A DNA stretch of 64,000 nucleotides, from contig NC_086097.1 of the NCBI RefSeq assembly GCF_963921235.1, forward strand, positions 39,868,001-39,932,000, read 5' to 3'. A program made the translations under genes and the position numbers. The notes beneath the pieces are model-generated. The model saw only the letters and a program-made list of their open reading frames with translations. It made no database searches and was not told the origin of the DNA. Below, piece after piece: positions 9,105 through 60,700 of this stretch. Every line of letters begins with the position of its first letter. Position 1 is the first letter of the stretch. Origin of the DNA: Mobula hypostoma (Eukaryota).

Positions 9105-10912
9105 CATAGTCATAGTCATAGTCATAGTCATACTTTATTGATCCCGGGGGAAATTGGTTTTCATTACAGTTGCACCATAAATAATAAATAGTAATAAAAC
9201 TATAAATAGTTAAATAGTAATATGTAAATTATGCCAGTAAATTATGAAATAAGTCCAGGACCAGCCTATTGGCTCAGGGTGTCTGACCCTCCAAGGGAGG
9301 AGTTGTAAAGTTTGATGGCTACAGGCAGGAATGACTTCCTATGACGCTCAGTGTTGCATCTCGGTGGAATGAGTCTCTGGCTAAATGTACTCCTGTGCCC
9401 ACCCAGTACATTATATAGTGGATGGGAGACATTGTCCAAGATGGCATGCAACTTTGACAGCATCTTCTTTCCAGACACCACCGTGAGAGAGTCCAGTTCC
9501 ATCCCCACACCATCACTGGCCTTACGAATGAGTTTGTTGACTCTGCAGGTGTCTGCTACCCTCAGCCTGCTTCCCCAGCACACAACAGCAAACATGATAG
9601 CACTGGGCACCACAAACTCATAGAACATCCTCAGCATCGTCCGGCAGATGTTAAAGGACTTCAGTCTCCTCAGGAAATAGAGATGGCTCTGACCCTTCTT
9701 GTAGACAGCCTCAGTGTTCTTTGACCAGTCCAGTTTATTGTCAATTCGCATCCCCAGGTATTTGTAATCCTCCACCATGTCCACACTGACCCCCTGGATG
9801 GAAACAGGGGTCACCGGTACCTTAGCTCTCCTCAGGTCTACCACCAGCTCCTTAGTCTTTTTCACATTAAGCTGCAGATAATTCTGCTCACACCAGGTGA
9901 CAAAGTTTCCTACCATAGCCCTGTACTCAGCCTCATCTCCCTTGCTGATGCATCCAACTATGGCAAAGTCATCCGAAAACTTTTGAAGATGACAAGACTC
10001 TGTGCAGTAGTTGAAGTCCGAGGAGTAAATGGGGAAGAGAAAGGGAGACAAGACAGTCCCCTGTCGAGCCCCAGTGCTGCTGATCACTCTGTCGGACACA
10101 CAGTGTTGCAAGCACACGTACTGTGGTCTGCCAGTCAGGTAATCAAGAATCCATGACACCAGGGGAGCATCCACCTGCATCGCTGTCAGCTTCTCCCCCA
10201 GCAGAGCAGGGCGGATGGTGATGAACGCACTGGAGAAGTCAAACAACATGACCCTCACAGTGCTCGCTGGCTTGTCCAGGTGGGCGTAGACACGATTCAG
10301 CAGGTAGACGATGGCATCCTCAACTCCTAGTTGGGGCTGGTAGGCGAACTGGAGGGGATCTAAGTGTGGCCTGACCATAGGCTGGAGCAGCTCCAGAACA
10401 AGTCTCTCCAGGGTCTTCATGATGTGGGAGGTCAATGCCACCGGTCTGTAGTCATTGAGGCCGCTGGGGCGTGGTGTCTTCGGCACAAGGACGAGGCAGG
10501 ACGTCTTCCACAGTACAGGAACCCTCCGGAGCCTCAGGCTCAGGTTAAATACATGGCGAAGTACTCCACATAGCTGAGGGGCACAGGCTTTGAGCACCCT
10601 GGTACTGACACCATCTGGTCTTGCAGCCTTGCTTGGGTTGAGATCTTTCAGCTGTCTTCTCACCTGTTCAGCTATGAAGTCCACCGTGGTGGTTTCGTGT
10701 GGGGAAGGGGTATAGTCATGAGAGCAGGGAGGGGGACTGTGAGGAGGGGTAGGAGGGGAGAGTGGAATATGTGTTGGTTGGGGGCCGACAACAGATGGCT
10801 CATGTGGGGGATGGGCAGGGGCCACGATGTCAAATCTGCTAAAGAACAGGTTAAGTTCATTGGCCCTGTCCACACTGCCTTCAGCTCCTCTGTTGCTAGC
10901 TTGCTGGAACCC
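9105..10912 (-). mobile_element. Rex1/Babar-clade LINE, 5'-truncated, young
   Basis: Uninterrupted RT ORF plus a 3' UTR ending in a (TATGAC)n tail (plus strand CATAGT repeats at about 9105-9133). Confidence 0.9.
9266..10873 (-). CDS. Rex1-type reverse transcriptase ORF (535 aa, no endonuclease)
   Basis: NDYRPVALTSHIMKTLERL, DPLQFAYQ, FDFSSAF.TI, QGTVLSPFLF, KFSDD, YKYLG motifs. No internal stops. Confidence 0.85.
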   Translation of the reverse strand: MDRANELNLFFSRFDIVAPAHPPHEPSVVGPQPTHIPLSPPTPPHSPPPCSHDYTPSPHETTTVDFIAEQVRRQLKDLNPSKAARPDGVSTRVLKACAPQLCGVLRHVFNLSLRLRRVPVLWKTSCLVLVPKTPRPSGLNDYRPVALTSHIMKTLERLVLELLQPMVRPHLDPLQFAYQPQLGVEDAIVYLLNRVYAHLDKPASTVRVMLFDFSSAFITIRPALLGEKLTAMQVDAPLVSWILDYLTGRPQYVCLQHCVSDRVISSTGARQGTVLSPFLFPIYSSDFNYCTESCHLQKFSDDFAIVGCISKGDEAEYRAMVGNFVTWCEQNYLQLNVKKTKELVVDLRRAKVPVTPVSIQGVSVDMVEDYKYLGMRIDNKLDWSKNTEAVYKKGQSHLYFLRRLKSFNICRTMLRMFYEFVVPSAIMFAVVCWGSRLRVADTCRVNKLIRKASDGVGMELDSLTVVSGKKMLSKLHAILDNVSHPLYNVLGGHRSTFSQRLIPPRCNTERHRKSFLPVAIKLYNSSLGGSDTLSQ

Positions 10913-11319
10913 TTTGATTGATCTTAATGATGTTTGGCTTTATGTAATAGTATCTAGGTAGTTCCATTATTTGCCATGCAAATACTTTCACATGGCTCCC
11001 TTTGAATGTAACAACTGAATTTGCCTCCTTTACTTGCCCAGCAGACTCTTACTGAGAGGCTAAGAAGAGATTTCCTCATGTGACTTTTGTTTCCTTTTCA
11101 GAATTTCTCTATTTACTCCATAATGGAACAATATATCATAGTTCTTTCCCCCTACATCAGTGGGAACAGTTTCTCAATGTCTTCTCTTTCTGTATGTAAC
11201 ATGATTTTAAATAAGTACCTCCACCTGGTCTACTTACAAACTGTTTGAACCAAGAAGAACGAGTGCAGATTCTCCTGTCTATCCACATTTTTAAGGTCCA
11301 TCTAACTGGGTTTCTTGTC

Positions 11320-12079: not shown

Positions 12080-15000
12080 AGTCCATCCAGAATATGAGCT
12101 TCATCTTCTAATCCTGAAGTCTGTCAGCATCTTCTTCCTTGGTGAAGACTGATGCAAAATACTAATTTAGTACCTTAGCCATCCTCCGTGCCTCTCTGAT
12201 AGTCTCTGATCAGTCTCTTCTCTCCTCTTACAAACTTCTGCACTATTACCGATTCCCTTTTATGTCTAAAGCTTCTTTTCTCACCCTTATTTGGTATCTT
12301 TGATTTTTTTTTTCCACTTCCCTTCAGAGCTTATTGAAATCAGCTTGGCCCTCATTTGTATTAACAACCCAGCACCTCTCATATGCTATTTTTCTACTCT
12401 GCTTTACTCTCTATCTTTTCAGTCATCCCTTGGAGATCTGGTTTAATTCCCTAAACCTTTTCCTTAATAAAACTGGACCTAGATTGTAGCTGAAACATCT
12501 CCACTTCAATTACAGCCTTGTTTCCAGTTTACCGAGACCAGATCCACTTTCATCCCATTGAAACTGGTCCTTGTCCAGTTGACAATTTTTATCTTGGAGT
12601 AGCTAATGTCCTTTTCCATAGTTACTTTAAACCTTTTGACATGATTACTGCTCCTTGGCTATTTACCCACTAATACTTGCTGAAAACAGCCTGGTTCACA
12701 TCTCAGAATCAAATTTAGCAATGCAAAGTTGGGCCAGGAATATTTTGATCAATGAAGTCCTTGTGAACATTTCGGAAACTTCAGAGAGTCAAAGGCTCAA
12801 ATTTCACTATTCTATGTTTTGTTTTCAAATCTGCACACTCTCCCTGAAAAGTTGCTCCTCTGTATCAGGATCCTTGACTTGACTTTTTACCTGTTTCTTT
12901 TTTCACTGATGTTGCCTGAGTATTTCATAGAACATAGAATAGTACAGCACAGTACAGGCCCTTCGGCCCACAATATTGTTCCAACCCTTAAACCCTGCTT
13001 CCCATATAACTCCCCACATTAAATTCCTCCATATACTTGTCTAGTAGTCTCTTAAACTTCACTAGTGTATCTGCCTCCACCACTGACTCAGGCAGTGCAT
13101 TCCATGCACCAACCACTCTCTGAGTAAAAATCCTTCCTCTAATATCCCCCTTGAACTGTCCACCCCTTACCTTAAAGCCATGTCCTCTTGTATTGAGCAG
13201 TGGTGCCCTGGGGAAGAGGCGCTGGCTGTCCACTCTATCTATTCCTCTTAATATCTTGTATACCTCTATCATGTCTCCTCTCATCCCACTTCTCTCCAAA
13301 GAGTAAAGCCCTAGCTTCCTTAATCTCTGATCACAATGCATACTCTCTAAACCAGGCAGCATCCTGGTAAATCTCCTCTGTACCCTTTCCAATGCTTCCA
13401 CATCCTTCCTATTGTGAGGCGACTAGAACTGGACACAGTACACCAAGTGTGGCCTAACCAGAGTTTTATAGAGCTGCCTCATTACCTCGCGACTCTTAAG
13501 CTCTATCCCTTGACTTATGAAAGCTAACACCCCATTAGCTTTCTTAACTACCCTATCTACCTGTGAGGCAAGTTTCAGGGATCTGTGGACATGTACCCCC
13601 AAATCCCTCTGCTCCTCCACAGTTCCAAGTATCCTGCCATTTACTTTGTACTCTGCCTTGGAGTTTGTCCTTCCAAAGTGTACCACCTCACACTTCTCTG
13701 GGTTGAACTCCCATCTGCCACTTCTCAGCCCACTTCTGCAACCTAACAATGTCTCTCTGCAATCTTCGACAATCCTCTACACTATCTACAACACCACCAA
13801 CCTTTGTGTCGTCTGCAAACTTGCCAACCCACCCTTCTACCCCCACATCCAAGTCGTTAATAAAAATCACGAAAAGTAGAGGTCCCTGAACCAATCCCTG
13901 TGGGACACCACTAGTGACAACCCTCCAATCCGAATGTACTTCCTCCACCAAAACCCTCTGCTTTCTGCAGGCAAGCCAATTCTGAATCCACCTGGCCAAA
14001 CTTCCCTGGATCCCATGCCTTCTGACTTTCTGAATAAGCCTACCGTGTGGAACCTTGTTAAGTGCCTTACTAAAATCCATGTAGATCACATCCACTGCAC
14101 TACCCTCATCTATATGCCTGGTCACCTCCTCAAAGAACTCTATCAGGATTGTTAGACACGATCTGCCCTTCACAAAGCCATGCTGACTGTCCCTGATCAG
14201 ACCATGATTCTCTAAATGCCCATAGATTCTATCTCTAAGAATCTTTTCCAACAGCTTTCCCACCACAGATGTAAGGTTCACTGGTCTATAATTACCTGGA
14301 CGATCCCTACTACCTTTTTTGAACAAGGGGACAACATTCGCCTCCCTCCAGTCCTCCGGTACCATTCCTGTGGACAACGAGGACATAAAGATGCTAGCCA
14401 GAGACTCAGCAATCTCTTCCCTCACCTCGTGGAGCAGCCTGGGGAATATTCCATCAGGTCCCGGGGACTTATCCATCCTAGTGTATTTCAACAACTCCAG
14501 CACCTTCTCTCCCTTAATATCAACATGCTCCAGAACATCAGCCTCACTCATATTGTCCTCACCATCATCAAGTTCTCTCTCATTGGTGAACACCGAAGAG
14601 AAGTATTCATTGAAGACCTCGCTCACTTCCACAGCCTCCAGGCACATCTTCCCACCTTTATCTCTAATCAGTCCTACCTTCACTCCTGTCATCCTTTTGT
14701 TCTTCACATAACTGAGGAATGCCTTGGGGTTTTCCTTTACCCTATTTGCCAAGGCCTTCTCATGCCCCTTTCTTGCACTCCTCAGCCCCTTCTTAAGCTC
14801 CTTTCTTGCTTCCCTATATTCCTCAATAGACCCATCTGATCCTTGCTTCCTAAACCTCATGTATGCTGCCTTCTTCCACCTGACTAGATTTTCTACCTCA
14901 CTTGTCACCTGCACTCTTATTTCAGATTTCCTGCGGCTGTGGTGTTTTTTAAATTTCATCTTGTTATTCTCATGACTAGTTATCCTAAATAATAGTCCCC

Positions 15001-15680
15001 AAAGTGTAATCACACCAATGTTGTTTCTCAGATTAAAGCAGATAGGATCTGCTCTCGAACATTACAAGGCTTCTCTCTCTAACAATGTCCTCTTTAATCC
15101 AAATCACATTCCTCCCTCCTTCATTTCTTCACCTTCCTTAACATCATGTCATCAGGGATATTTAGAATCAATTTCTGCCCTTTTGTTTGGCCAGTTATCT
15201 ACCAGAATGTGAATTCTTCCTGCAGTTCAACAACCTTCTTTAATAAACTTCTAGTATTTACAACTATTTTAAATCTATTTGTACAGTCATGTTGTTGGGT
15301 CCGCTATAAAAACTTGATATTACTTTTTCTGGTGCTATTTATCTCTTCCAATCCATTTTTGCACCTTTTTTTCTCTTTTTCAGTAAAACTTCCTGAGAGC
15401 ATTCCCTATCAAACACCCTGCACAGTACTGGTGAGCCTTCTTGCATGACATTGCTCAGTTGGGGAACATTCATCCAGATAGTATAGTTACCACCTTCCCC
15501 AGAACTGGTTGCAATGTCTCAGGAAGCTAAAGGCTTTCTTTCTGCACCATCTCTCCAGTTGCACATTTATCTGTGCTAGTCTCTATTTCTATTCTCGCTG
15601 GAGTGTAACACAGGAAGTTATCCAAAAATTGCTTTCTTTTGGGTCCTTCTTCTTAGTTAACACTTTGGTATATTGTAAGG
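12080..15680 (-). mobile_element. Old, heavily decayed CR1, split by a younger CR1
   Basis: Degenerate CR1 EN-to-RT linker at 12080-12900. EN N-terminal and ORF1-like sequence at 14930-15680. Confidence 0.5.
12926..14907 (-). mobile_element. Young CR1 LINE, 5'-truncated (RT plus 3' UTR)
   Basis: ORF 13688..15013 has KSPGPDGI, NYRPV.LTS, QHGF.KGRSCL, YMDFSKA, SGVPQG, KFADD. One frameshift near 13712 and one stop near 13423. 3' tail reads CATAGAACATAGAA on the plus strand. Confidence 0.92.
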
Positions 15681-19574: not shown

Positions 19575-22120
19575 AAATCCATGCAAGGGCATTGCTTCAT
19601 GATCAATTCCTCATGGTGTACAAACATAGTGGTGCTTTCCCACTCCTGTTCACCAGACTTTGAATACCTTGCATTTAAATGCTGTTCATCTTACCTGCCG
19701 TGGGAGATTTCAGTGATCATTTTGGTAGCAGTGCACAATCCACCTCAGGCCAATGTCAAACAGGTTCTAGAAGAACTGAGCAATGTAATCAATAGGCATG
19801 AAACTGCACATCCTGGTGCCTTCCCCATCAGTTTGGAGCTTTTTATCGGGTCATCGTGAAAAGGTCACTATGTAATCATGATCAATAAATCACCAGTGGT
19901 AAGAAAAATACTGGGCCACTGTTCCACCACCATCAAGAGTGCTTACCGTGCTATCCCACACCCACACTTTGGGAAGTCTGATCATCTGGTGTACTTCTGA
20001 TCCCTGAGTATAGGTAAGGACTGAAGACTGCAGCACCAGCAGTGAGGACCAAGAAGATATAGACAAGGGAAACACAAGAGTGCTTACAGGACTTGATTGA
20101 ATTGGTGAACTGGACAGTATTCAGCGATTCATTTTCTAATCTGGATGAGTATGCTGCAGTTGTCACTGACTTCATTAAAACCTGTGTAGAGGTTATGCCT
20201 ACAACAACATACTGTACATATCCAAATCAAAAGTTGTGGATGAACCAGGAGGTCCGTAGTCTGCTGAGGGCTGGATCTGTGGCATTTAAGTCTGGTGACC
20301 CGGGTCTGTATAAGAAAACCAGGTATGATTGCAGAGGGCTATTTCAAGCGCAAAGAAACAATTCTGAGTGAGGTTGGAGGCGACATTGGGTGCACGTCAA
20401 CTCTGACAGAGTTTGTAAGCTATTACTTTCTACAAAGCAAAATCCAACATCATGAATGCCAGATGAGCTCAACACCTCCTATGCCCGCTTTGAAAGGTAG
20501 GGTAAAATTAGAGCCATGAGGATCCCTGTGTCACCCAGTGACCCTGTGATATCTGTCTTGGAGGCCGATGTCAGGCTGTCTTTCAAAAGGGTGAACCCTT
20601 GCAAGGAGGCAGGCCCCGATGGAGTACCTGGTAAGGCTCTGAAAACTTGTACCAACCAGCTGGCGGATGTATTCAAAGAAATTTTCAAACTCTCATTGCT
20701 ACTGTCGGAAGTTTCACCTGCTTCAAAAGGGCAACAATTACACCAGTGCCCAAGAAGAGTAGTGTGAGCGGCCTCAATGGCTATCGCCCTGTAGCACTCA
20801 CATCTATGGTGATGAAGTGCTTTGAGAGGTTGGTCATGGCCAGAGTCAACTCCTGTCTCAGGAACGACCTGGGCCCACTGCAATTTGCCTATCAGCACAA
20901 TTGGTCTATGGCAGATGTGATATCAGTGGGTCTCCATGTGGCCTTGCCTCACCTGGACAATACAAATATCCTTATTGATTATAGCTCAGCATTTAACACC
21001 GTCAATGCTGATTGAAAAGCTACAGAACCTGGGCCTCTGTACCTTCCTCTGCAACTGGATCCTCGACTTCCTAACCAGAAGACCACAATCTGTGTGGATT
21101 GGAAATAACATCTCCACCTCACTGACAATCCACACTGGCGCACCTCAAGGATGTGTGCTTGGCTCACTGCTTTACTCTCTCTACATCCATGGCTGTGTGG
21201 CTCGGTATAGCTCAAATGTCAACTATAAATTTGCTGATGATACAACCATTGTTGGTAGAATCACCTATGGTGACGAGAGGGCGCCCAGGAGTGAGATATA
21301 CCAGCTGATTGAGAGGTATCGTAGCAAAAACCTTGCACTCAACATCAGTAAGACCAAAGAGCTGATTGTGGACTCCAGAAAGGGGAAGACAACGGAACAC
21401 AAACCAATCCTCAAAGAAGGAGCAGAAGTAGAGAGAGTGAGCATTTTCAAGTTTCTGGTTATCAATATCTCTGAGGACTTAACCTGGTTGCGACATATTG
21501 ATGCAGCTATAAAGAAGGCAAGACAGTTGCTATGTTTCATTAAGAGTTTAAGGAGATTTGGTTTGTCACTTAAAACACTTGAAAACTTCTGCAGAAGAAC
21601 TGTGGAGAGCATTCTGACGGGCTGCATCACTGTCTGGTATGGAGGGGGGAGCTACTGCACAAGATCGAAGTATGTTGCAGAAAGTTTTCAATTTAGTCGG
21701 CTCCATCATGTGTACTAGCCTCCATAGTATTCAGGACATCTTCAAGGAGTAGTGCCATAGGAAGGCAGCTTCCATCATTATGGATGCCCAGCATTCAGGA
21801 CATGCCCTCTTCTCACTGTTACCATCAGCAAGGAGGTACAGAGGCCTGAAGGCCCACACTCAAGTGATTCAGGAACAGCTTCTTCCCCGCTGCTACCTGA
21901 ATCCTAAATGGACTTTGAGCCCGTCAACTCTACCTCACTACATTTTTAAAATTTCTGTTTTGGCACTACTTGTTTTAACTTAACTATTTAATATACATAT
22001 ATGCTGACTGTAATTCAGTTTTTTTGACAATTATCATGTACTGCATTGTCTGCTGTGGCAAAGTTAACAAATTTCACGGTGCATGCGGAAGATATTAAAC
22101 CTGATCCTGATTCCAATTCT
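19575..22120 (+). mobile_element. Rex1/Babar-clade LINE, near full ORF (EN plus RT), decayed
   Basis: ORFs 19551..19859 (EN), 20093..20371, 20516..20767, 20647..21015 (YRPVALTS.VMKCFERL) and 20936..21718 ([13 protein letters not shown]). Multiple frameshifts. 3' tail AAACCTGATCCTGATTC. Confidence 0.88.
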
Positions 22121-24553: not shown

Positions 24554-24684
24554 GCAAACACGAGGTAACCTGCAGATGCTGGAAATTCCAGCAACACACA
24601 CAAAACGCTGGTGGAACACAGCAGGCCAGACAGCATCCATAGGAAGAAGCACAGTCGACATTTTGGGCCGAGACCCTTCGTCAG
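24554..24684 (-). mobile_element. Short Penelope terminal-repeat insertion
   Basis: AAACACGAGG..CTGCAGATGCTGG...GGCCGAGACCCTTCGTCAG, flanked by the direct repeat ATATTAATATCTTT. Confidence 0.75.
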
Positions 24685-25580
24685 TATATATTAATATCTT
24701 TCCTGAGTTCTACATGTTAAAATTGCAAGTGATGTGAATCAAAGGAAAGGGAAGTATGGTTGACAAGCAGAGTATGGGACTTCCAGCAGCACACACAAAA
24801 TGCTGGAGGAACTCGACAAGTCAGGCAGCATCTATGGAGAGGAATAAACAGTCGATGTTTTGGGGGTCTTTTCACAGCCCATAACTCAGCGTCTGGACAG
24901 CTGCTGACTGAAGGACATATACCCTCTTAGGCATAGAAATATAATAGAACTTACACAATTTGTCTTACTATTGACGGTAATTGTGCATTTTTAAAACAAT
25001 TCTATTATACAGGCCCTACCCAATTGGAGCAGAATGCATGTAACCTTTTAAAGAAATGCACAAGACAAGGGTGAGGAAAACAAGTAACAGACTTACATTA
25101 CCAAATCTTCAATGTTGACCAAAACAATCTAATTTTTTAAATCAAGTAATCATAAATAATTTACAAACTAAAGAATCCAGTTTGAAGAATCTACATCTAC
25201 ATTCTATATAAAGCATGATTAAACTTTGACAGTATCCTAATTTGCTCACTGTGCCAGACACACAATATGACCTTCTCATACAATAAAATTACTCCCTGAT
25301 TATAATGAAATTATGAGCATTACCTGTCATCAAGAATTGCTTGCTTTAGGAAACCATTTTTGTTCACTTAGGAGTTCTCTGATCATCTACTTATTTTGAA
25401 GTGCATACATCCAGTACTCCAGGGAATATGACAGCCAGTTTAAGCATCAGAACGTCCCACAAACAGCAATGCCATGACAGTAAAATAATCTGTCTCGGTA
25501 ATGATGGGCTGGTTATATCTTAGTATCTTTGCAAATATTGGAAAAATAACCAAACTACAATTCAGCTATTAAACTGGTGC

Positions 25581-25804
25581 TGTACCGTATAGCCTACATT
25601 ATAATAAGGGACTACTTTATGTTGTAGTAACACATCTTTCAATGCGCTATTAGGTGCATATTGAGCATGCGCTATTAGACGCATATTGATCTGTACATGT
25701 GTGTTCAGTTCAATTTTGGTCAGTAAAGAACCCTGCTAACTTAGCTCTCATCTCCAGCGTTTTAATTTATAGCTTTGTTGTGTAACCCGGCCACATACAC
25801 AACA
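25581..25804 (+). repeat. 5' LTR
   Basis: TGTACCGTATAGCC...TACACAACA. Ungapped match to 30486-30709 with about 28 mismatches in 224 by hand count, many at CpG. Confidence 0.95.
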
Positions 25805-25807
25805 AAT

Positions 25808-25817
25808 TGGCGATGAG
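25808..25817 (+). promoter_or_regulatory. Primer-binding site, tRNA-Ser(GCU)-like
   Basis: TGGCGATGAG lies 3 nt after the 5' LTR. It is one change from TGGCGACGAG, the complement of the tRNA-Ser(GCU) 3' end CUCGUCGCCA. Confidence 0.8.
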
Positions 25818-26166
25818 ATTAATGAACCTACATTGTATCGGAACGCCGTGTTTTAATTGATAACGACACTCGGAAGAAGAGCGCAACGTACGAGCCAAGG
25901 CAGAGTGAGGCCGCGAGTCTGAAAGGAAACGGAAGCACAGCTGCAAGTCTGGAACGTCGGGAGACCAGGAGACACAGTCGGAGCCACAGCATGTCCAGCC
26001 GAGACCACAGCCGGCGCTGACCCCCAGGGGCTGAGGGTCTGCCTGCCTCAGAAGGGAAATAAAAAGGAGCAACACACACACATCCAGACAGAATGCGCTC
26101 GTGGCACTAGCAAAAAGGTCACATGAGTAAAAAAAGGGAGAACGGGACTAAATTAACATAACAAAG

Positions 26167-27135
26167 ATGGCAATGATTGGAACCATTACAGCGTATGATA
26201 GTAGCATTGAAGACTGGGCAACTTACATTGAAAGAGTGGAGTTATATTGTGATGCTAACGATGTTAATGATGGAAAGAAAGTCAGTATCTTACTTAGTAT
26301 TATGGGAGCAAAAACATACAGCCTGCCACGGGGCTTGTTAACACCTGAAAAGCCAGCTGACAAAACTTTCAAGCAAATAGTAGACACTCTGCAACAGCAT
26401 TTAAACCCCAAACCGCTGGGCATTGCTGAAAGATTTAAATTTCACAATTCGAATCAGAGCAAAAATGAAAGCATTTCTGAATATTGTGCTGAATTGCACA
26501 AATTATCAGAACATTGTCAATTTGGAGCTGGTCCATTGGACGCATTGAGGGACAGGTTAGTGTGTGGCATGTACTGTGAAACTACACAGAAGAAGCTCCT
26601 GGGTGAAAAAGGCCTTACATTTGAGAGAGCACTAAACATCTCAATATCATTAGAAATAGCTGCACGAGGTGCTTCAGAGATACAACAAAAATCTCTGGAA
26701 TATGCAACGAATAAAATGACACTGTACAGAAATGAAGGAAAGAAATGTTACCTTTGTGGGAACAGGTCACATGATCCTGATGGTTGCTGGTTTAAAGACA
26801 AAGAATGCAGAAACTGTGGCAAACAGGGCCACATTGGCAGAGTATGCAAAGCTAGTAAACCGCAGAGAAAGGTCAAATTACAGAGAAACAAGAAACCCCA
26901 GAAAGGAAAACACAACAAGGTACACAAAATTAAAGAAGACAGTTCTGATGAAAACAAATCTGATGAAAGTGAACTGTCTTATCTGCAACTTCACAGTGTG
27001 GAAGAGACAGATGATCGAAGAGTAATAGAGATCACTCCACAAGTGGCAGGCGTAAGACTGAAAATGGAGTTGGATACAGGCTCAGCTTTAACAGTGATCT
27101 CTGTTACAAACGACTGTTTTCACACATACTTCTGA
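26167..27135 (+). CDS. gag: Gypsy Gag plus protease N-terminus (322-aa ORF, ends after a frameshift)
   Basis: EDWATYIERV..Y..AN, PKPL.IAERFKFH..NQ...ESISEY..EL..L...C.FG, ALRDRLVCG. Two knuckles (CYLCGNRSHDPDGC, CRNCGKQGHIGRVC). Aspartyl protease motif ELDTGS. Confidence 0.9.
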   Translation: MAMIGTITAYDSSIEDWATYIERVELYCDANDVNDGKKVSILLSIMGAKTYSLPRGLLTPEKPADKTFKQIVDTLQQHLNPKPLGIAERFKFHNSNQSKNESISEYCAELHKLSEHCQFGAGPLDALRDRLVCGMYCETTQKKLLGEKGLTFERALNISISLEIAARGASEIQQKSLEYATNKMTLYRNEGKKCYLCGNRSHDPDGCWFKDKECRNCGKQGHIGRVCKASKPQRKVKLQRNKKPQKGKHNKVHKIKEDSSDENKSDESELSYLQLHSVEETDDRRVIEITPQVAGVRLKMELDTGSALTVISVTNDCFHTYF

Positions 27136-27345
27136 AACGAACAAAACTTCCACTGCTAAAGACTTACACAGGATAGAAAGTGCGTCCCGAAGGCAAAATT
27201 AAAGTGACAGTGACCCACAGAGGTAAAATACAGCAACTGAACCTCTATGTACTGAAAAATGGAGGACCACCTTTGCTGGGATGTGAATGGCTCAGGAAAA
27301 TCCAGTGGATTGACACACCATCAAGGCACTAGATGTGTCAACAAA
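27040..27345 (+). pseudogene. Gypsy aspartyl protease and linker, disrupted
   Basis: After a frameshift near 27106 it reads YKRLFSHILLKRTKLPLLKTYTG*KVRPEG...LYVLKNGGPPLLGCEWLRKIQ. After a 1-nt deletion it continues [10 protein letters not shown]. Confidence 0.85.
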
Positions 27346-27367
27346 GGAGGGCAGCTCGGCGGGGAAG

Positions 27368-28030
27368 ATGTCCGCAGCTCTCCTCTCACCCATTGTCCAC
27401 TATTCCAATGACGAGGAGGAGCTAGGCAGCGTCAACGATGGGGGCGAACGTAGTATCCGTGGCCGCGACTCGGATGAAGATACAGAGGATGCAAGGGAGA
27501 CCGATATTGCCAATAAGCAGGATGATGAAGACTACCTGGAAGTAAAAGAGCAGATGTACCAGGAGAAATTGTCCTAAAAGACAGCTACAGCAATTACAGG
27601 AAGGCACTTTGCAGGAGTATTAGAAAAGGATGAAGAAACTAGATCAACAATTCAAGGAAAGAATACAAAATGCAGAGCTTTTTCTGCAACTGGAGACAGA
27701 ACAAGTGGAAAGGAATTATATTAAAGAGAAGAAAGCAGCAGTGAAGGAATTTGAAGATAAAAAGATTGAGTTAGAAGAAAAGAAAAAGATGATTGAGAAT
27801 GAGAGGCTAACAATGGAACTCACAGGAGATTCTATGGAGGTAAAGCCAATAAGGACTAGGAAACTAAGGAGGAGACCTAATTGCCCTATTCCAATTACAG
27901 ACAAAAGACAAAAACCTGCACCTGCGCAGTTAACTTACTTGTTAACAGATGAACATATAATGGAAGATCTGCAAACTCTCAATAAGCTTAAATCTCCGAA
28001 AAGACCAGCATCTCCGTCTTCTCCTGAACA
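27368..28030 (+). pseudogene. SUDS3: Processed (intronless) SUDS3 fragment inside the LTR element
   Basis: MSAALL...[15 protein letters not shown]...[14 protein letters not shown], then [62 protein letters not shown]...[18 protein letters not shown]...[36 protein letters not shown]. This closely matches vertebrate SDS3 from the start to about residue 240. It has a frameshift near 27572, a stop near 27621, loss of about 8 codons (KENLIAEL in human) and a 3' truncation. Confidence 0.95.
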
Positions 28031-28384
28031 ATTTCCTTGGGAAAGATCCATGCAAATTGATTATCCCTTAAAAGCTCTTGGACAAAATCAATTCCATTCA
28101 AACAGAACAGCTTTCGCACAAGGTAAATCTTTAATTGATCATTTCCTCCATTGAGAATCATACACTTAATCCTTTGCAGGGAAGCTTCTTTTGCACGTAC
28201 GTATTTTGAATCCTCAGCAATGTGTCTTGTTTTGCACAAAGACATTGGGAAACAGCATCAAAACAGAGGCGAATTCTGGCAACAAACTGTAAGGTTTCTA
28301 TTGTTGTATTTTCACACTTGCACAAAATAAACAACACATGAGCTTGGGCACAAGCCAAAAATCAGCCACATCAGGAAGATTCAA
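28018..28384 (-). pseudogene. RNF213: RNF213 cDNA fragment, downstream part (antisense to the LTR element)
   Basis: TTIETLQFVARIRLCFD and [40 protein letters not shown] align with human RNF213 SVEYLQEVARIRLCLD and NDWHRVYLVRKLSSQRGMEFVQGL...WVFPKDVVK (from memory). One frameshift between the blocks. Confidence 0.85.
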
Positions 28385-29825
28385 GCGCTAGTGAATAGAG
28401 GTAAGTTTTGAGCCTGGACTTAAAAGATCAATGGGGGGGGGGCAGATCTGATAGGGAGGGGAATGTTGTTCCACAGTCTAGGGACTACAACAGCACAAGG
28501 CACAGTCACCCCTGAACTTAAATTTAGATCGCGGGGCAGCCAGGAGCCCCAAGTCAGCCGACCTGAGGGAACTGGAAGTAGAATAAGGAGTTAGAAGGTC
28601 TGCGATATAGGAGGGGGCCAGCCCATTTAGGGGTTTATAAACAAACAGGAGAACCTTGAAATCAATTCTAAACCATACTGGTAACCACTGTAGAAAGGCC
28701 AGGATAGAAGTAATATGGTCCCTCTTCCGGGCACCTGTCAGGAGCCTGGCTGTGGTGTTCTGGACCAGTTGCAGGCAGGACAAGGACGACTGACTAATCC
28801 CAGTATACAGGGAGTTGGAGTAGTCCAAGCGGGCAGATATAAGGGTGTGGATGACTTTCTTGAGATCTTTGAAAGAGAGAAACGTCTTGATTTTGGCAAT
28901 AGTACGAAGCTGGAAAAAATTGGCTTTTACTACCACATTAACTTGCTGGTCAAACTTAAAGGCGGAATCAAATATTACACCAAGGTTTTTGACATGGTGT
29001 TTGACAAGGGTAGACAGGTTACCAAGACTGTTGGTAATCACTTTGATGGAGTCAGTGGGGCTAAATAGGACAACTTCAGACTTGCCTTCATTCAACTGTC
29101 GGAAGTTTTGTGCCATCCAACACTTTATGTCCTCAAGGCAGTTCATGAGACTGACTAGATTTGATTGGTCGTTTGGTTTCAAGGGGAGATAAAGCTGTGT
29201 GTTGTCAGCATAACAATGGAAGGAAATTACATGTTTTTGAATGATTTGGCCAAGGGGAAGCATGTATATAGAGAAAAGAATAGGACCTAGGATGGAACCT
29301 TATGGGACCCTGCAAGAGAGACTAACTAGAGAAGAGGAAAATTTGCCTATGCTGGCGGCGCAGCTTCTATTTTTGACATAGGATATGAACCACTTCAAGG
29401 CAGTGCCATCAACACCAACCCCGTAATGGAGACGGTCTATTAAAATGGCATGATCCATAGTATTGAATGCGCTGAGGTCAAGAAGAATTAGGATGGCAGA
29501 GTCACCTGAGTCGGTAGAGAGGAGGAGATCATTGTACACTTTCAGCAGGGCAGACTTTGTGCTATGATAACCTTAAAACCTGACTGAAATCTTTCCTAGA
29601 TGTTGTTTTGGTGTAGGTAGGGCAGCAATTGACTAAGAATAACCTTTTCGATAACCTTTGACAGGAATGGAAGTTTAGAAATAGGTCTGTAGTTACTAGG
29701 TAAGGTAGGGTCTAAATTGTTTTTTTTTCAGGAGGGGCTTGACCGTAGCACGCTTGAAGCAGGTTGGAATGGTACCAGTGGCCAGGGAGCTGTTGATTAT
29801 AGAGAGGATGCTGGGACTGGCTATG
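28385..29825 (-). mobile_element. L2-clade LINE RT fragment inserted in the RNF213 segment
   Basis: ORFs 29696..29881 (IINSSLATG.IP..FK.A.V.PLLKK), 29300..29539 (LILLDLSAF.T.DH.IL) and 28478..29263 (HCYADNTQLY, SARLDYSNSL, RDHITSILA.LQWLP). Confidence 0.9.
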
Positions 29826-29829
29826 TCAA

Positions 29830-30290
29830 TCTTTTCTTGCACTGTGCACAATTGGGATTTTTCATACATTGAATCCTCCAAACAATTCAGAAACAGTGCA
29901 TAGAGTTCAGTCTCATTTTCTCGACTAAGATTTGTTTTTTTTTTAACTTCAGACAGATAGCACTGCAGGTACTCCTTAATATCAGCAAAACTGTACTTTA
30001 GCAGCAGCTTAAGAACAATGGAATGAACAGCAGGATTTCGATCAACTGCTTCTTCAAACTGTGAAAGATTACTGGTAAAGTAGTGATCTTTCTGTGAGAC
30101 ATTGGATTGCCCCGACTTTTGAATAACTAGCCAAGACAGAAGATCACCAACTACTTCTTTTGGAAACCAAAGCTACAAAAAATGCATCACACCTCTTGCA
30201 AAATATGACTAATTTTGCTACAGCTTCAGTTATTTCTTCTGTTACCGCTGGTACATAATCATCAACTAGAGAAGTACAGCACAGTGGGCA
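29830..30290 (-). pseudogene. RNF213: RNF213 cDNA fragment, upstream part (end of RING into E3 module)
   Basis: Minus strand reads CPLCCTSLVDDYVPAVTEEITEAVAK...CKRCDAF, KEVVGDLLSWLVIQK, SQFEEAVDRNPAVHSIVLKLLLKYSFADIKEYLQCYL and ETELYALFLNCLEDSMYEK. The human counterparts (from memory) are CPYCLTALPDEFSPAVS, KEVIESLLSLLFVQK, SPFNDVVDKTPVIRSVILKLLLKYSFHDVKDYIQEYL and KTELYMLFINCLEDSILEK. Confidence 0.88.
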
Positions 30291-30467
30291 GAGTCCCCCC
30301 CAGAGACTTGAGTTATAAATGGGTCTTAGACCAAAAGTTAAAAAAAAGGCTTGTTATAATTTGATATTATTAAGTTACTAAGTAAACAAATGGTAGGCGT
30401 TTTATCTTAGGGGTAAACATATTTGTTTAGCATAGTGCCCCAGTAAAAAAAAAGTTGATACACTATT

Positions 30468-30485
30468 AAAATAAAAGGGGTGGAG
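30468..30485 (+). promoter_or_regulatory. Polypurine tract
   Basis: AAAATAAAAGGGGTGGAG immediately before the 3' LTR. Confidence 0.85.
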
Positions 30486-30709
30486 TGTATCGTATAGCCT
30501 ACATTATAATAAGGGAGTACATTATGTTGTAGTAACACGTCGTTGAATGTGCTATTAGGCACGTATTGAGCATGTGCTATTAGGCGCGTATTGATCAGTA
30601 CGTGTGTGTTCAGTTCAGCTTCAGTCAGTAAAGAATCTTGCTAATTTAGCTCCCGTCTCCAGTGTTCTTATTTATAGCTTTGTTGTGTAACCCGCCCACA
30701 TACACAACA
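30486..30709 (+). repeat. 3' LTR
   Basis: TGTATCGTATAGCC...TACACAACA, followed by TSD GGTAC. Confidence 0.95.
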
Positions 30710-31033
30710 GGTACTTGTCGCAACACCACTTGAAATATGTGTAAAGTACAGATAAATAAAGTTTGGAGACACTTTCAGATATCATGAAACTAACATAACA
30801 AAGAATGTGAAAAAATATTTATTAATTATTTAATTAAAACTATACTCTTGTTCAGATTATGTTTTCACAGCTGCACTCTTCGGTGCTTGCAGAAATGCAA
30901 CATCGAAGAGGCTCCTAATATATTGGTGCCAACTCTTTGGAGAGCTCTTCTAATAGCCCTGGAGCCATATTGCTGTTTCCCCAGAAACTTAAACATTTTC
31001 CTCAATTTCATTATTGTTTTCTTTCTGATATCA

Positions 31034-46849: not shown

Positions 46850-49800
46850 GTTTCCCTTCATGTTCCCCTTAAACGTTTCACCTTTCACCCTTAACCTATG
46901 ACCTCTGGTTATAGCCCCACCCAACCTCAGTGAAAAAAGCCTGCTTGCATTTATCCCATCTATACCCCTCATAATTTTTTATACCTCCACTCACTCTTCT
47001 ACATTCCAAGGAACTCCTAACCTATTTAATCTTTGCTTATAACTCAGGCCCTACAGACCTGAAAACAACCTTGTAATTTTTCTTTGTACTCTTTCAGCCT
47101 TATTTACATCTTTCCTGTAGGTAGGTGACCAAACATGCACACAATACTTCAAAATAGGCCTCACCAATGTCTTATACAACTTCAACATAACATCCCATCT
47201 CCTGTAATCAATACTTTAATTAGGCCAATGTGCCAAAAGCTTTCTTTGCGGCCCTATTGACCTGTGACATGACCTTCATTGAATTATGGACCTGTATCCC
47301 CAGCTCCCTTTGTTTTACCGTACTCTTCAGTATCCATTGTTCACTATTCACTATGTAAGACTTGCCTTGGCTGGTCCTATCGAAGTACAGGACCTCACAC
47401 TTGTCTGTTAAATTCCATCTGCCATATTTCTGCCTATTTTCCAGCTGTTTCAGGTCCCACTGCAAGCCATGATAGCCTTCCCTGCTGTCCACTACACTCC
47501 CAATCTTGGTGTCATCTGCAAATTTGCTGATGCAGTTAACCACATTATCATCTAGATCATCCATATAGGTGACAAACAACAACAGAGCCAGCAGTGATCC
47601 CAGCGATATACCACTAGTCTCAGGCCTCCAGTCAGAGAGGCAGACATCTACATCTACTCTCGGGCTTCTCCCAGAAAGGTAATGTCCAATCCAATTTTCT
47701 AACTCATCTTGAATGCCGAGCAACTGAAACTTTTGACAATGCTCCCATGTGGGACCATATCAAATAAGAACATAAGAAATAGGAGCAGGCGTTGGCCATC
47801 TGGCCCGTTGAGCCTGCTCCACCATTCAATAAGATCATGGCTGATCTGGCCATGGGCTCATCTCCACCTACCTGCCTTTTCCCCATAATTCCCCTACTAT
47901 GCAAAAGTTGATCCAACCTTGTCTTAAATATATTTACTGCGGTAGCCTCCACTGCTTCGATGGGCAGAGAATTCCACAGATTTACCACTCTCTAGGGAAA
48001 GCAGTTCCTCCTCATCTCTGTCCTAAATCTACTCCCCCAGATCTTGAGACTATATCCCCTGGTACTAGCCTCACCTATCAGTGGAAGTTCCTGCCTCTAT
48101 CTTATCTATCCCTTTCGTAATTTTATATATTTCTATAAGATCTCCTCTCATTCTTCTGAATTCCAGTGAGTACAGTCCCAGGTAACTCAATCTCTCTTCA
48201 TAGTATCTCTGGAACCCCTTATCTCTGGAATCATCCTGGTGAACCTCTTCTGCACCGCTTCCAAAGCCAATATATCCTTTCTCAAGTAAGGAGACCAGAA
48301 CTGCATGCAGTACTCTACGTGCGGCCTTACCAGTATCCTGTACAGCTGCAGCATAACTTCCCTGCTCTTAAATTCAATCCCTCTGGCAATGAAGGCCAAC
48401 ATTCCATTTGCCTTTTGATAGACTGCTGCACCTGCAAACCAACCTTTTGTGATTCATGCACAAGCACTCCCAAATCCCTCTGCACAGCAGCATGCTGAAA
48501 ATTTTTACCTTTTAAATAATAATCTGCTCTTCCATTTTTCCTTCCAAAGTGGATGACCTCGCATTTACCAACATTGTACTCCATCTGCCGGACCCTTACC
48601 CATTCACTTAACCTATCTATATCTCTCTGCAGACTCTCCATATCTTCTGCACAATTTGCTTTTCCACTCAATTTAGTTTTATCAGCAAACTTAGAGACAC
48701 CACACTTGGTCCCCTCTACCAGATCTTTAGCAAATGCCTTGATAAAGTCCATGTAGACAATATCCACTGCCTTGCCTTCATCCACTTTTCTAGTAACTTC
48801 CTTAAAAAACCTATCAAGGACCTATGGACTTATGAAGCCATGCTGACTATCCTTAATCAGTCCATGTCTATCCAAATACTTCCTTTCCAGTCCCTTAGAT
48901 TACCTTCCAATAACTTTCCCACTACTGATGTCAGGCCTATAATCTGGTGGTTTATATTTAGAGTTTTCCTTAAACAGCAGAACAACATTGGCTATTCTCC
49001 AAACCTTTGGTACCTCACCTGTCACGAAGGGTGTTTAAATGATCGTTGCTAGGGCCCTGACTATTTCTGCACTTGCCTCCTGCAGGGTCCAAGAGATCAC
49101 CTTGTCAGGTTCTGGGAATTTATCCACCCTAATTGAACTCAGGACAGCAAACACCTCCTCTTCTGATGTCTGTTAGGGTCTATGAAGTTGATGCTGCTTT
49201 GCCTCATTTCTATAGACTCTGTGTCCGTCTCCCGAGTAAATACAGATGCAAAAAATTCTTTTAATATCTCCCCCATCTCTTTTGGCTCCACACATGAATC
49301 ACTATTCTGATCTTCCAGAGCGCCAATTTTGTTCCCTGCAAACCTTTTGCTCTTTACCTTGTCTGCTAGGGCAACCTCATGCCTTTATTTTTGCCCCACC
49401 CCAATTTCTTTTGTAAGTGTTTGCTTGCATTTCTTATACTCCAGAAATACCTCACTTGTTCCTCCCTGCCCACACCTGCTATGCACCTTCTTTTTATCCT
49501 TAACAGGGCCTCAATATCCCTTGAAAACCAAGGTTCCCTACACCTGTTAACTTTAACTTTCATACAAGCTTTTTATTCTCAAAATTACCCTTTTGTAGGC
49601 CTTCCATGTACCAAGCCGGAAAACAGCCTGTCCCTATCCACACTTGCCAGATCCTTTCTGATACCATCAAAATTGGCCTTTCTCCAATTTAGAATCTCAA
49701 CCCGTGGCCCTGATCTATCTTTTTGCATATTTACTTTGAAACTAATGGCATTGTGATCACTAAATGCAAAGTGTTTCCTTACACAAACTTCTGTCACCTG

Positions 49801-59209: not shown

Positions 59210-60700
59210 TCATTTTTAAAATATTTTTATTGATACATAATCTTCTACAGCTATAAAATGATACAAGACTTCAACAAGTTGATATATATACAGTTAATAA
59301 AGCTGAAGAAAATATTTATCAAATAAGAATAATATATGATAATGAAAAAAATTATTTTTTATAAAGAAAAGAAGGAAAAAAAGAGAACTCCAACTAACTA
59401 AAAGAAAAAAACCCACTAACTACAAAAGAAAGAAAAAGAAAAAAAAAGAAAAAAGAAAAAAGAAAAAAAAATCCATTAGGAACCAGCTCCTGGAAAAATA
59501 TGTCTTACGATCATCTGTATATATAAAGAAGAAAAATCATCATCCGCCAACTCACATTTATATAAAATAAGATTGGAAGGAAACCATATAAATTAATTCA
59601 AATTAAATGATAATATTTGGCAAAAGAGCCCCATCTTCTCTCAAAATCGAATCGAGGATCAAAAGTCCTACTTCTAATTTTTTTCCGAAATAAGACATAA
59701 CATTACTTGGGAAAACCATTGAATTAATGTAGGGACAGAGGTACCTTTCCATTTCAATAAAATAGCCCTTCTTGCCAACAATGTATCAAATGCAATTACA
59801 TGTTGGTCTGAAGATGAAACACCCTGAATATGATGTGGAACTATTCCAAATAGAACAGTCAGTATATAAGGTTGTAAATTAATTTTCAGAGCTTTAGAAA
59901 TTGTAAAAAATAAAGAGTTCCAAAAAGATTTTAATGAAGAACATGACCAGAACATATGTGACAAAGTGGCTACTTCAGTTTTACACCTATCACAATAGTT
60001 GTCTATGTTAGGAAATATTTTGGATAGTCTCTCCTTTGTTAAATAATAACGGTGAACAATTTTAAATTGAATTAAACAGTGATTGCCACATACCGAAGAA
60101 GAATTGACCATTTTCAGAACTTGCAACCAATCTTCATTAACAAAGGTCATATTAAGTTCTCCCTCCCAATCTTGTTTAATCTTTAGTGAGAGGTTAACTT
60201 TTTGTAGTAAAAATAAATTATAAATTCTACCAATGGAACCTCTCACTAAAGGATTCATATTCAAAATAGTATCCAACAAATCAGATACTTGCATATATGG
60301 AAACTTAGATAAGTATTTTTGTAAAAAATGTCCAACCTGTAGATATTGCAGGAAGTGTGTATGAGAGAGGGAATATTTACTAATTAACTCTTCAAAAGTC
60401 ATCAATCGACCATCACAAAATAAATCTGCAAAAAAACAGATCCTTGAAGGCTTAAATAGAAAATTTCAATATAAACAGCTATACAATTTAAATTGTTTAA
60501 AATTAAAAGAGTTGCGAAACTGAAACCAAATCCATAAGGACTGTTTAATAACTGGGTAGAGATTTAAATTTGGAATTTTAGCAAGTTGTAAAGGTAATGG
60601 AGCTCCTAATAATGAGGTTAAATAAAGTTGTTTGATAGCTTTTCATTCCAAATCGATCCAAGCTGGTTTTTGGCTCTTGTCGAGCCAATATAGTCAAAAA
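59210..60700 (-). mobile_element. L1-clade LINE 3' fragment
   Basis: ORF 59674..60405 has FLQYLQV.HFL, LIQFKIVHR.Y.T..RL.KI.P, knuckle CDRC....ATLSHMFWSC and ARRAILLKWK. T-rich 3' UTR ending in AATAAA. Confidence 0.9.

Follow-up and report, generated by a model that had tools for sequence, protein, structure and literature searches.

Acutely transforming retroviruses carry gag-onc fusions in which a spliced host coding sequence replaces replication genes, and they are helper-dependent. Maize elements of the Bs1 type, which Elrouby and Bureau reportedly treated in 2010 as 'pseudo-LTR retrotransposons' (LTR, long terminal repeat), are said to carry pieces of host genes and to re-transpose. The family of LTR elements analyzed here is represented by a decayed copy at positions 25581-30709 of a 64,000-nt stretch of Mobula hypostoma contig NC_086097.1 (this whole stretch is called the window; the host genome is eukaryotic, measures 3.48 Gb, and has skate and ray proteins as its nearest named relatives). 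In this copy, reverse transcriptase, RNase H, and integrase have been swapped for sequences of two host genes, SUDS3 in sense and RNF213 in antisense orientation. Like transforming retroviruses, the family carries a spliced host coding sequence in frame with gag and appears to depend on helpers; unlike them, it is a germ-line Ty3/Gypsy lineage without env that was amplified as genomic copies, and there is no evidence of a cellular effect. With Bs1, as that element is reported, it shares a non-autonomous LTR structure, gag, host fragments in place of pol, and probable mobilization in trans, but Bs1 is said to be a low-copy plant element, whereas the SUDS3 family resides in a vertebrate and has hundreds of copies.

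LTR-mediated retrocopies with microsimilarity are known in flies, mosquito, zebrafish, chicken, and mammals; in the available text of Tan et al. (2016; PMC5131818), which also cites retroviral capture of host mRNA, some have several parents and a few have re-transposed. The SUDS3 family resembles these retrocopies in that host mRNA lies within a discontinuous LTR retrotransposon, has lost its introns, is without poly(A), and shows microsimilarity at the fusion points, and it shares with some of them more than one parental gene and re-transposition. It differs from the cases described in that text in having its SUDS3 junction at least 274 times, a whole coding sequence in frame with gag-protease, a second gene that is antisense with a 22-nt flanking duplication, and a preserved series of intermediates. 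The same text describes the human HERV-K capture of FAM8A1 (Jamain et al., 2001), also a vertebrate LTR element with a processed host gene and fusion-point microsimilarity, as a single untranscribed pseudogene; the SUDS3 family was amplified instead. Our literature search on SUDS3 with retrotransposons or retrocopies, and on non-autonomous LTR capture in sharks, returned no description of a SUDS3-carrying transposon. The event is of a known kind, LTR-mediated retroposition, on a scale unusual for a vertebrate.

Two spliced host sequences in place of pol

On the + strand of the window, SDS3 is read from an ATG at 27368, with PDB matches to SDS3 (4zqa, E = 3.2e-27) and to its Sin3-binding peptide (2n2h, E = 1.6e-6). 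The SUDS3 complementary DNA (cDNA) occupies 27355-28027 (+) and comprises 13 nt of 5′ untranslated region (UTR) followed by coding sequence to about codon 225, broken by one stop and one frame change. RNF213 is read on the − strand: 29827-30172 matched solved RNF213 chains just behind the RING (E = 5.6e-25), and the window's RNF213 part is 65% identical to a skate RNF213-like protein. It falls into two pieces, both on the − strand and separated by a nested long interspersed nuclear element (LINE). The first, 28028-28320, covers a parent exon (28021-28218) and part of the next, with 94% and 91% nucleotide identity to the exons of the parent contig C68; the second, 29822-30295, holds the remainder of the split exon and four more exons, without introns. 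With the window's own pieces as queries, Pfam recognized neither an Sds3 nor an RNF213 family, and the identities were obtained through PDB sequence searches and a sister-copy frame. From 27355 to 30295, the + strand contains no reverse transcriptase, RNase H, or integrase of the element's own, which makes the window copy non-autonomous.

Three junctions define the chimera. J1 (27349-27355, +) is a 7-nt microhomology, GGGCAGC, common to the autonomous pol, the parental SUDS3 5′UTR, and the chimera. J2 (28020-28027) consists of TCTCCTGA, shared by sense SUDS3 and antisense RNF213. J3 is a deletion junction marked by a C-run, behind which the last pol codons PPQRLEL* (30295-30318, +) reproduce the integrase C-terminal tails of autonomous relatives. 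There is no A-run at any junction of the captured pieces, neither of which carries poly(A) in the window copy. An earlier interpretation of this DNA, hereafter the sequence-only reading, had recognized both host genes, their orientations, and the pol tail at ~30295, all of which hold. Its pol/SUDS3 breakpoint at ~27345 has to be moved to 27354/27355, and its description of 27345-30295 as two host genes without reverse transcriptase is right for the Gypsy enzymes but missed the LINE with an RVT_1 domain at 28321-29821.

We compared both captured sequences with their parental genes. Searches for the SUDS3 parent by protein were swamped by family copies, and it was reached through the 5′UTR of an mRNA-like contig from public sequencing runs, 30 letters of which had one genomic match, on contig C78. 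Homology between C78 and window 27346-27482, corresponding to exon 1, stops at a GT donor; the element continues into exon 2. The SUDS3 capture is a spliced copy from which intron 1 is absent. The parental RNF213, located with flanking parts of the skate protein, lies at ~48.785-48.849 Mb of C68, where 18.1 kb was compared. The window's RNF213 part corresponds to six of its exons, in order and antisense, spread over 16.8 kb of the parent; exon identities are 76-95% (five of the six at 90-95%, the remaining one with a gap), and five introns are absent. The RNF213 capture is likewise a spliced copy, and the sequence-only reading was correct in calling both pieces intronless, for SUDS3 as far as intron 1 is concerned. 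Weaker RNF213-like matches, at 42-57% identity, lie at 41.27-41.30 Mb of C68 and at C2:218463653; these are probably paralogues and not the source of the capture.

Around the captured sequences, the parts expected of an integrated LTR element are all recognizable, as had been claimed from the sequence alone. Direct repeats of 224 nt each, with TG...CA ends and 88% identity, form the 5′ LTR (25581-25804, +) and the 3′ LTR (30486-30709, +). They are flanked by GGTGC (25576-25580) and GGTAC (30710-30714), a target-site duplication that matches at four of five positions. A putative primer-binding site beginning TGGCGA (25808-25825, +), with its TGG 3 nt beyond the end of the 5′ LTR, is conserved in position in 9 of the 10 sister copies shown, and a polypurine tract (30466-30485, +) abuts the 3′ LTR in 11 of 11 copies shown. 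The gag frame is open over 26152-27135; counted from the initial ATG to the stop codon present in this decayed copy, it spans 26167-27135 (+), encodes two CCHC knuckles, and is 86% identical in nucleotides to autonomous copies, with weak Pfam support (DUF7083, below cut-off). The protease remnant (LDTGSA) and the pol linker, frame-broken, cover 27040-27354 (+), up to the point at which homology to autonomous pol stops; the corresponding gag-asp_proteas match on a sister-copy frame was also below cut-off (E = 7e-4).

A dispersed family and its autonomous relatives

Junctions were counted across the genome with 32-nt patterns and at most three mismatches, and reversed-pattern controls gave 0 matches throughout. 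J1 was found at least 274 times, J2 at least 56 times, and J3 of the window type at least 13 times; a further junction of antisense RNF213 with the SUDS3 C-terminus (J4) was found at least 24 times. The places are scattered over many contigs. A 1401-nt query from the protease to RNF213, spanning both J1 and J2, matched end to end at 16 other loci with 87-92% identity, and at 8 further loci the match ended exactly at window 28036. Many copies also exist of the part that runs from RNF213 through to the 3′ LTR; in sister copies, 38-47 bp separate it from the stretch covered by the 1401-nt query. The LTR alone, as a genome query, gave 40 scored matches out of 1522 candidates.

Target-site duplications show that these copies integrated separately. 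Perfect 5-bp duplications flank copies with SUDS3 and RNF213 (B forms; L032 and L066), copies with SUDS3 alone (form A; L059, L061, L062, and L063), and an autonomous copy (L055), and they differ from copy to copy among these seven; at L058, L060, and L041, as in the window, four of five positions match. With common junctions and copy-specific target duplications, the chimera has re-transposed as a unit. The sequence-only reading had proposed a transducing, non-autonomous Gypsy element and suggested looking for the junctions at several loci with different duplications; both the proposal and the amplified family that it made the test are supported. It had also cautioned that a pol deletion might have been patched with cDNA after integration, or that the chimera might be a misassembly, and beyond that caution a local origin has a single point in its favor, namely that the window copy alone has the LINE. 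Both junctions, however, recur at dispersed loci and in independent contigs from public runs. Because such contigs bridge J1 under four organism codes and two bridge J2, misassembly and a one-off patch are excluded at the window locus, and we give the local reading, which these data refute, practically no credence.

Copies that leave the window match at 28036 continue into the natural SUDS3 C-terminus, stop codon, and 3′UTR. This form A consists of LTR, gag, protease, and linker, 13 nt of 5′UTR, the whole SUDS3 coding sequence, ~125 nt of 3′UTR, the pol tail, and LTR; its join to the pol tail lies 28 nt upstream of the window's and shows a 3-nt microhomology, CAG. When a ray SDS3 (327 aa) was used as genome query, 125 places matched (1705 candidates, 122 scored), mostly full-length over ~930 bp, intronless, and 69-94% identical. 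Matches of this kind are what ordinary LINE-made processed pseudogenes or retrogenes, repeatedly formed and selectively kept, would also provide. A 2026 preprint that surveys retrocopies in this general frame (bioRxiv 10.64898/2026.06.26.734816) ranks SUDS3 with the top five parent genes in cartilaginous fishes, and it also has retrocopies of MIPOL1, SDF2L1, SLU7, and ZNF276. We nevertheless consider such an origin very improbable. The SUDS3 copies are joined to Gypsy pol at a single invariant 5′ junction, which recurs 274 times, and they sit between LTRs with 5-bp duplications. Selective retention is hard to reconcile with the stop codons in 114 of the 125 matches, with a Ka/Ks (nonsynonymous to synonymous rate ratio) of 0.55 against 0.57 for an antisense RNF213 control, and with differences spread evenly over codon positions.

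A shared internal deletion bears on the same question. Relative to the genuine SUDS3 mRNA-like contig, all family copies are 24 nt short; the missing stretch, at window 27766 and bounded by a TGAGTT repeat, encodes eight residues also present in mouse SDS3 and is an in-frame slippage deletion. Because every copy lacks the same 24 nt, the family descends from one founding capture and not from repeated retroposition. A sub-group of copies is also without window 27437-27493, an in-frame 57-nt stretch that encodes part of the acidic SDS3 N-terminus and crosses the exon 1/2 join; since parental exon 1 has this sequence, the loss is derived.

The pol linker and the SUDS3 ATG lie in one frame in the window. 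Sister copies retain frames of 461 aa (gag-protease-SUDS3) and 313 aa (protease-SUDS3, with an Sds3 Pfam match), and four of the 125 SDS3 matches sit in open frames of 679-709 aa. It follows that the founding element encoded a Gag-protease-SDS3 fusion. A search for a protease-plus-Sds3 chimera in a set of 5.8 billion proteins gave seven matches, none with both domains (batoid SDS3 and protease fragments only). As annotation is commonly preceded by repeat masking, this negative is uninformative on other species.

Upstream of some 3′ LTRs lies an integrase frame with the same tail as the window's PPQRLEL*, and these LTRs belong to autonomous relatives. One such relative, L055 (5.07 kb), has an LTR, gag, and protease that are 86-89% identical to the window's (86-92% in the overall comparison with the autonomous partner) and then continues through ~2.7 kb of pol that the window copy does not have. 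Pfam found RVT_1 with RT_RNaseH_2 and then rve in this stretch, and L055 and a second copy, L056, show the order protease homology, RVT_1 with RT_RNaseH_2, rve, and the common pol tail. Alignment to an autonomous partner, which the sequence-only reading had recommended, mapped the breakpoints in this way. Pol runs uninterrupted over the 5′ breakpoint at no fewer than 151 places, a count that is low because the query had two private differences. From the Pfam domains and their order, the family would be a non-autonomous derivative of a Ty3/Gypsy LTR retrotransposon. Since the enzymes are missing, the cis parts are intact, and helpers are present, mobilization in trans by the autonomous relatives is the probable means of its spread. 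With at least 274 junction matches, the defective element is comparable in number to its helper, which has at least 151, or above it. In L055, the hexamer GGGCAG immediately precedes each of the two pol-loss breakpoints (element positions ~1928 and ~4603), and a simple repeat-mediated deletion of pol may have occurred before or alongside the SUDS3 capture.

Kimura two-parameter distances between the two LTRs range from 0.070 to 0.140 in the 11 copies measured. The window copy is the most diverged, with 28 substitutions (21 transitions and 7 transversions) and a distance of 0.140. The LTRs also vary in length through a 25-nt tandem duplication, which the window carries at 25640-25690 and at 30545-30595. 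In 5 of 11 full copies (L032, L055, L058, L059, and L061), the 5′ LTR has one 25-nt unit and the 3′ LTR two; the reverse pattern occurs in none of the 11, while both LTRs are long in three and both short in three. As this one-way difference recurs between LTRs that are expected to be identical at the start, it suggests that slippage is frequent at a single step of reverse transcription, which may be the synthesis of plus-strand strong-stop DNA.

A probable order of stepwise capture and deletion

Additional copies reveal how RNF213 is placed within the family. In a long B form (L020 and L067), the antisense RNF213 is ~310 nt longer, with three more parent exons joined; these extra exons are found at ~44 dispersed places (52 of 60 matches lie outside C68). 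The long form then carries the SUDS3 C-terminus and 3′UTR of form A at 93% identity, and SUDS3 resumes 22 nt before the point at which it was left at the left junction. This 22-nt stretch stands to the left of the insert in J2 copies and to its right in J4 copies, and no single copy has both. Because SUDS3 restarts with a 22-nt overlap, RNF213 was probably inserted into the SUDS3 of a form-A element. The left RNF213 junction lies within the 8-nt microhomology of J2, at the point where a parent exon has its 3′ boundary. The sequence-only reading was right that the captured pieces are without poly(A), but the older form of the family would have a duplication flanking RNF213; likewise, the double capture of two genes in opposite orientations stands, although the captures appear to have been successive, SUDS3 first and RNF213 later inside SUDS3, and not simultaneous.

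We therefore propose, and hold to be very likely, that the SUDS3 family is a trans-mobilized, non-autonomous Ty3/Gypsy family that captured SUDS3 and then RNF213 in separate steps. In the first step, minus-strand synthesis by reverse transcriptase would have left the element RNA for a co-packaged, spliced SUDS3 mRNA and then returned, exchanging ~2.7 kb of pol for 13 nt of 5′UTR, the whole SUDS3 coding sequence, and ~125 nt of 3′UTR. The outcome would have been form A with its Gag-protease-SDS3 fusion frame. This step fits the model of template switching at microsimilarities that the available text of PMC5131818 sets out for LTR elements and retroviruses. In the second step, a spliced RNF213 cDNA of ~1.2 kb would have entered SUDS3 in antisense orientation, primed at the 8-nt microhomology, and would have left a 22-nt SUDS3 duplication on both sides; we call the resulting form B0.

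Since switching to an mRNA puts the insert in sense orientation, the second step must have taken another route than the first. Within the particle, plus-strand synthesis could have used the 8-nt match to jump to a co-packaged RNF213 mRNA, with a return 22 nt upstream. RNF213 could instead have entered a chromosomal form-A copy at the DNA level, with this copy then serving as the source of the B forms: a DNA end at a nicked or broken site, such as one cut by a LINE enzyme, would prime on RNF213 mRNA through the 8-nt microhomology, or a stray cDNA would be caught at a staggered break. A 22-nt flanking target duplication is the product expected from staggered nicks, a DNA 3′ end that primes on mRNA yields an antisense, 5′-truncated, spliced insert, and fragments of LINE reverse transcriptase are plentiful nearby; in addition, reverse-transcribed spliced mRNA was caught at breaks in mouse zygotes, according to the available text of PMC4516963. 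On the other hand, the insert has no poly(A) or LINE 3′ tail and both of its ends are internal to the mRNA, a plus-strand switch to a co-packaged mRNA and back that re-copied 22 nt would give an identical product, and the family has several other microhomology jumps typical of reverse transcription. Between the two routes, we rate entry at the DNA level as a real contender that falls a little short of an even chance.

The captured RNF213 sequence ends, in the sense direction, on an exon-exon boundary (28020-28027; the parent exon ends at offset 17074 of L064+L065). Chance, which would produce such a fit in about 1 case in 20, may account for this; alternatively, the boundary may have been the end of the template RNA. 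The piece ends in the coding region and without an A-run, and in this it differs from a LINE-made processed pseudogene, which would have an mRNA 3′ end with poly(A).

In a third step, microhomology deletions would have produced several sub-forms, each still transposing; one copy of a mid form was among those compared. J4 copies lost 77 bp across J2, at a TCC microhomology, and in J2 copies the right side was removed by at least two different deletions, each ending in the pol-tail C-run (one in L034 and L066, the other in the window). The window represents a short form without 746 bp of the long form; gone from it would be the right-hand RNF213 sequence together with the C-terminus of SUDS3 and 28 nt of the pol tail. 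Because these 28 nt are missing from the window form yet common to form A and the autonomous element, the window form is not ancestral, and its 'tail to tail' layout is that of a later deletion derivative.

Several points weigh against this reconstruction. The 56 J2 places and the 24 J4 places yielded no copy in which the two junctions lie together, and B0 is therefore a form that we infer and have not seen. The textbook minus-strand switch onto an mRNA cannot yield an antisense spliced insert, so that the second step needs a less usual route. The B copy L036 is without a clear target duplication, and the sole full long-form copy examined has a truncated 3′ LTR and does not show one for the long form. 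The splicing of SUDS3 was checked at parental intron 1 only, and the case for mobilization in trans is a structural one. Copy numbers are lower bounds set by the 32-nt patterns; those for the autonomous and J4 junctions, whose patterns each had two private differences, are not strictly comparable with that for J1. Finally, all 11 copies measured are old, with no sign of present activity.

After integration of the window copy, a 5′-truncated LINE fragment (28321-29821, −; ~1.5 kb), which now makes up half of the interval that replaces pol, would have landed in its RNF213 sequence as a fourth step. It retains the C-terminal half of the reverse transcriptase and the 3′ end (Pfam RVT_1, 34.4 bits against a cut-off of 29.6) and splits one RNF213 exon, at which ~41-46 bp of the host element were lost. 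It is private to the window copy: every sister copy examined has 38-47 bp of RNF213 sequence in its place, and no relative of this LINE was found in the window or at the compared loci. Other LINE remains are abundant in the window, at 9266-10939 (−), 13688-15061 (−), 20921-21718 (+), 47220-47759 (−), and 59674-60465 (−); four of these five frames contain RVT_1, one of them with an ALKBH8_N-like stretch as well, and one contains zf-RVT. No host gene was seen among the ten window frames of at least 170 aa that were scanned. Just upstream of the element, two 69-nt direct repeats (24572-24640 and 24767-24835) lie at a distance of 195 nt and match at 78%; a short interspersed repeat may be their source.

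SUDS3 in the element and in retrocopy counts

We asked whether SUDS3 had been under selection within the element by pairwise Nei-Gojobori analysis. Ka/Ks was 0.55 for SUDS3 (26 copies) and 0.57 for the antisense RNF213 control (20 copies), compared with 0.49 for the protease (30 copies) and 0.47 for gag (24 copies). SUDS3 showed none of the small third-position excess of differences seen in gag and protease. SUDS3 thus gave no sign of constraint beyond the control in these comparisons, in which gapped and stop codons were dropped and which have low power where most differences post-date insertion. We also considered SDS3, a subunit of the Sin3-HDAC corepressor, as a working gene and rejected it, given the stop and the frame change in the window and the control-like Ka/Ks of the family.

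The B forms, in which SDS3 is broken after about residue 225, still multiplied. Because of this, and because its Ka/Ks equals the control, SUDS3 is most simply read as a passenger, a reading for which the Ka/Ks test is a weak one. It is conceivable, though in our judgment unlikely, that the Gag-protease-SDS3 protein was more than that: its Sin3-binding and dimerization parts could have anchored particles or pre-integration complexes on Sin3-HDAC chromatin or sequestered the host complex, and could thereby have aided spread. By extension, the other top retrocopy parents reported for cartilaginous fishes might be transposon hitch-hikers too, and not selected retrogenes.

The SUDS3 family is a clear vertebrate germ-line case in which a whole host coding sequence was transduced, fused to gag-protease, and carried to hundreds of copies, whereas capture by LTR elements in animals is otherwise known mainly from single or few-copy cases. 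The nested series that leads from the autonomous element to SUDS3, to SUDS3 with antisense RNF213, and to the deletion forms has kept every junction and is thus a natural record of template jumps by reverse transcriptase. Part of this record is a spliced insert, antisense and with a flanking duplication, of a kind not expected under the standard model. The family is likely to be the cause of the SUDS3 retrocopy signal in the cartilaginous-fish preprint. Retrocopy censuses in which SUDS3 ranks high probably count one transposon family, and claims of formation bias or selective retention that build on them need correction.

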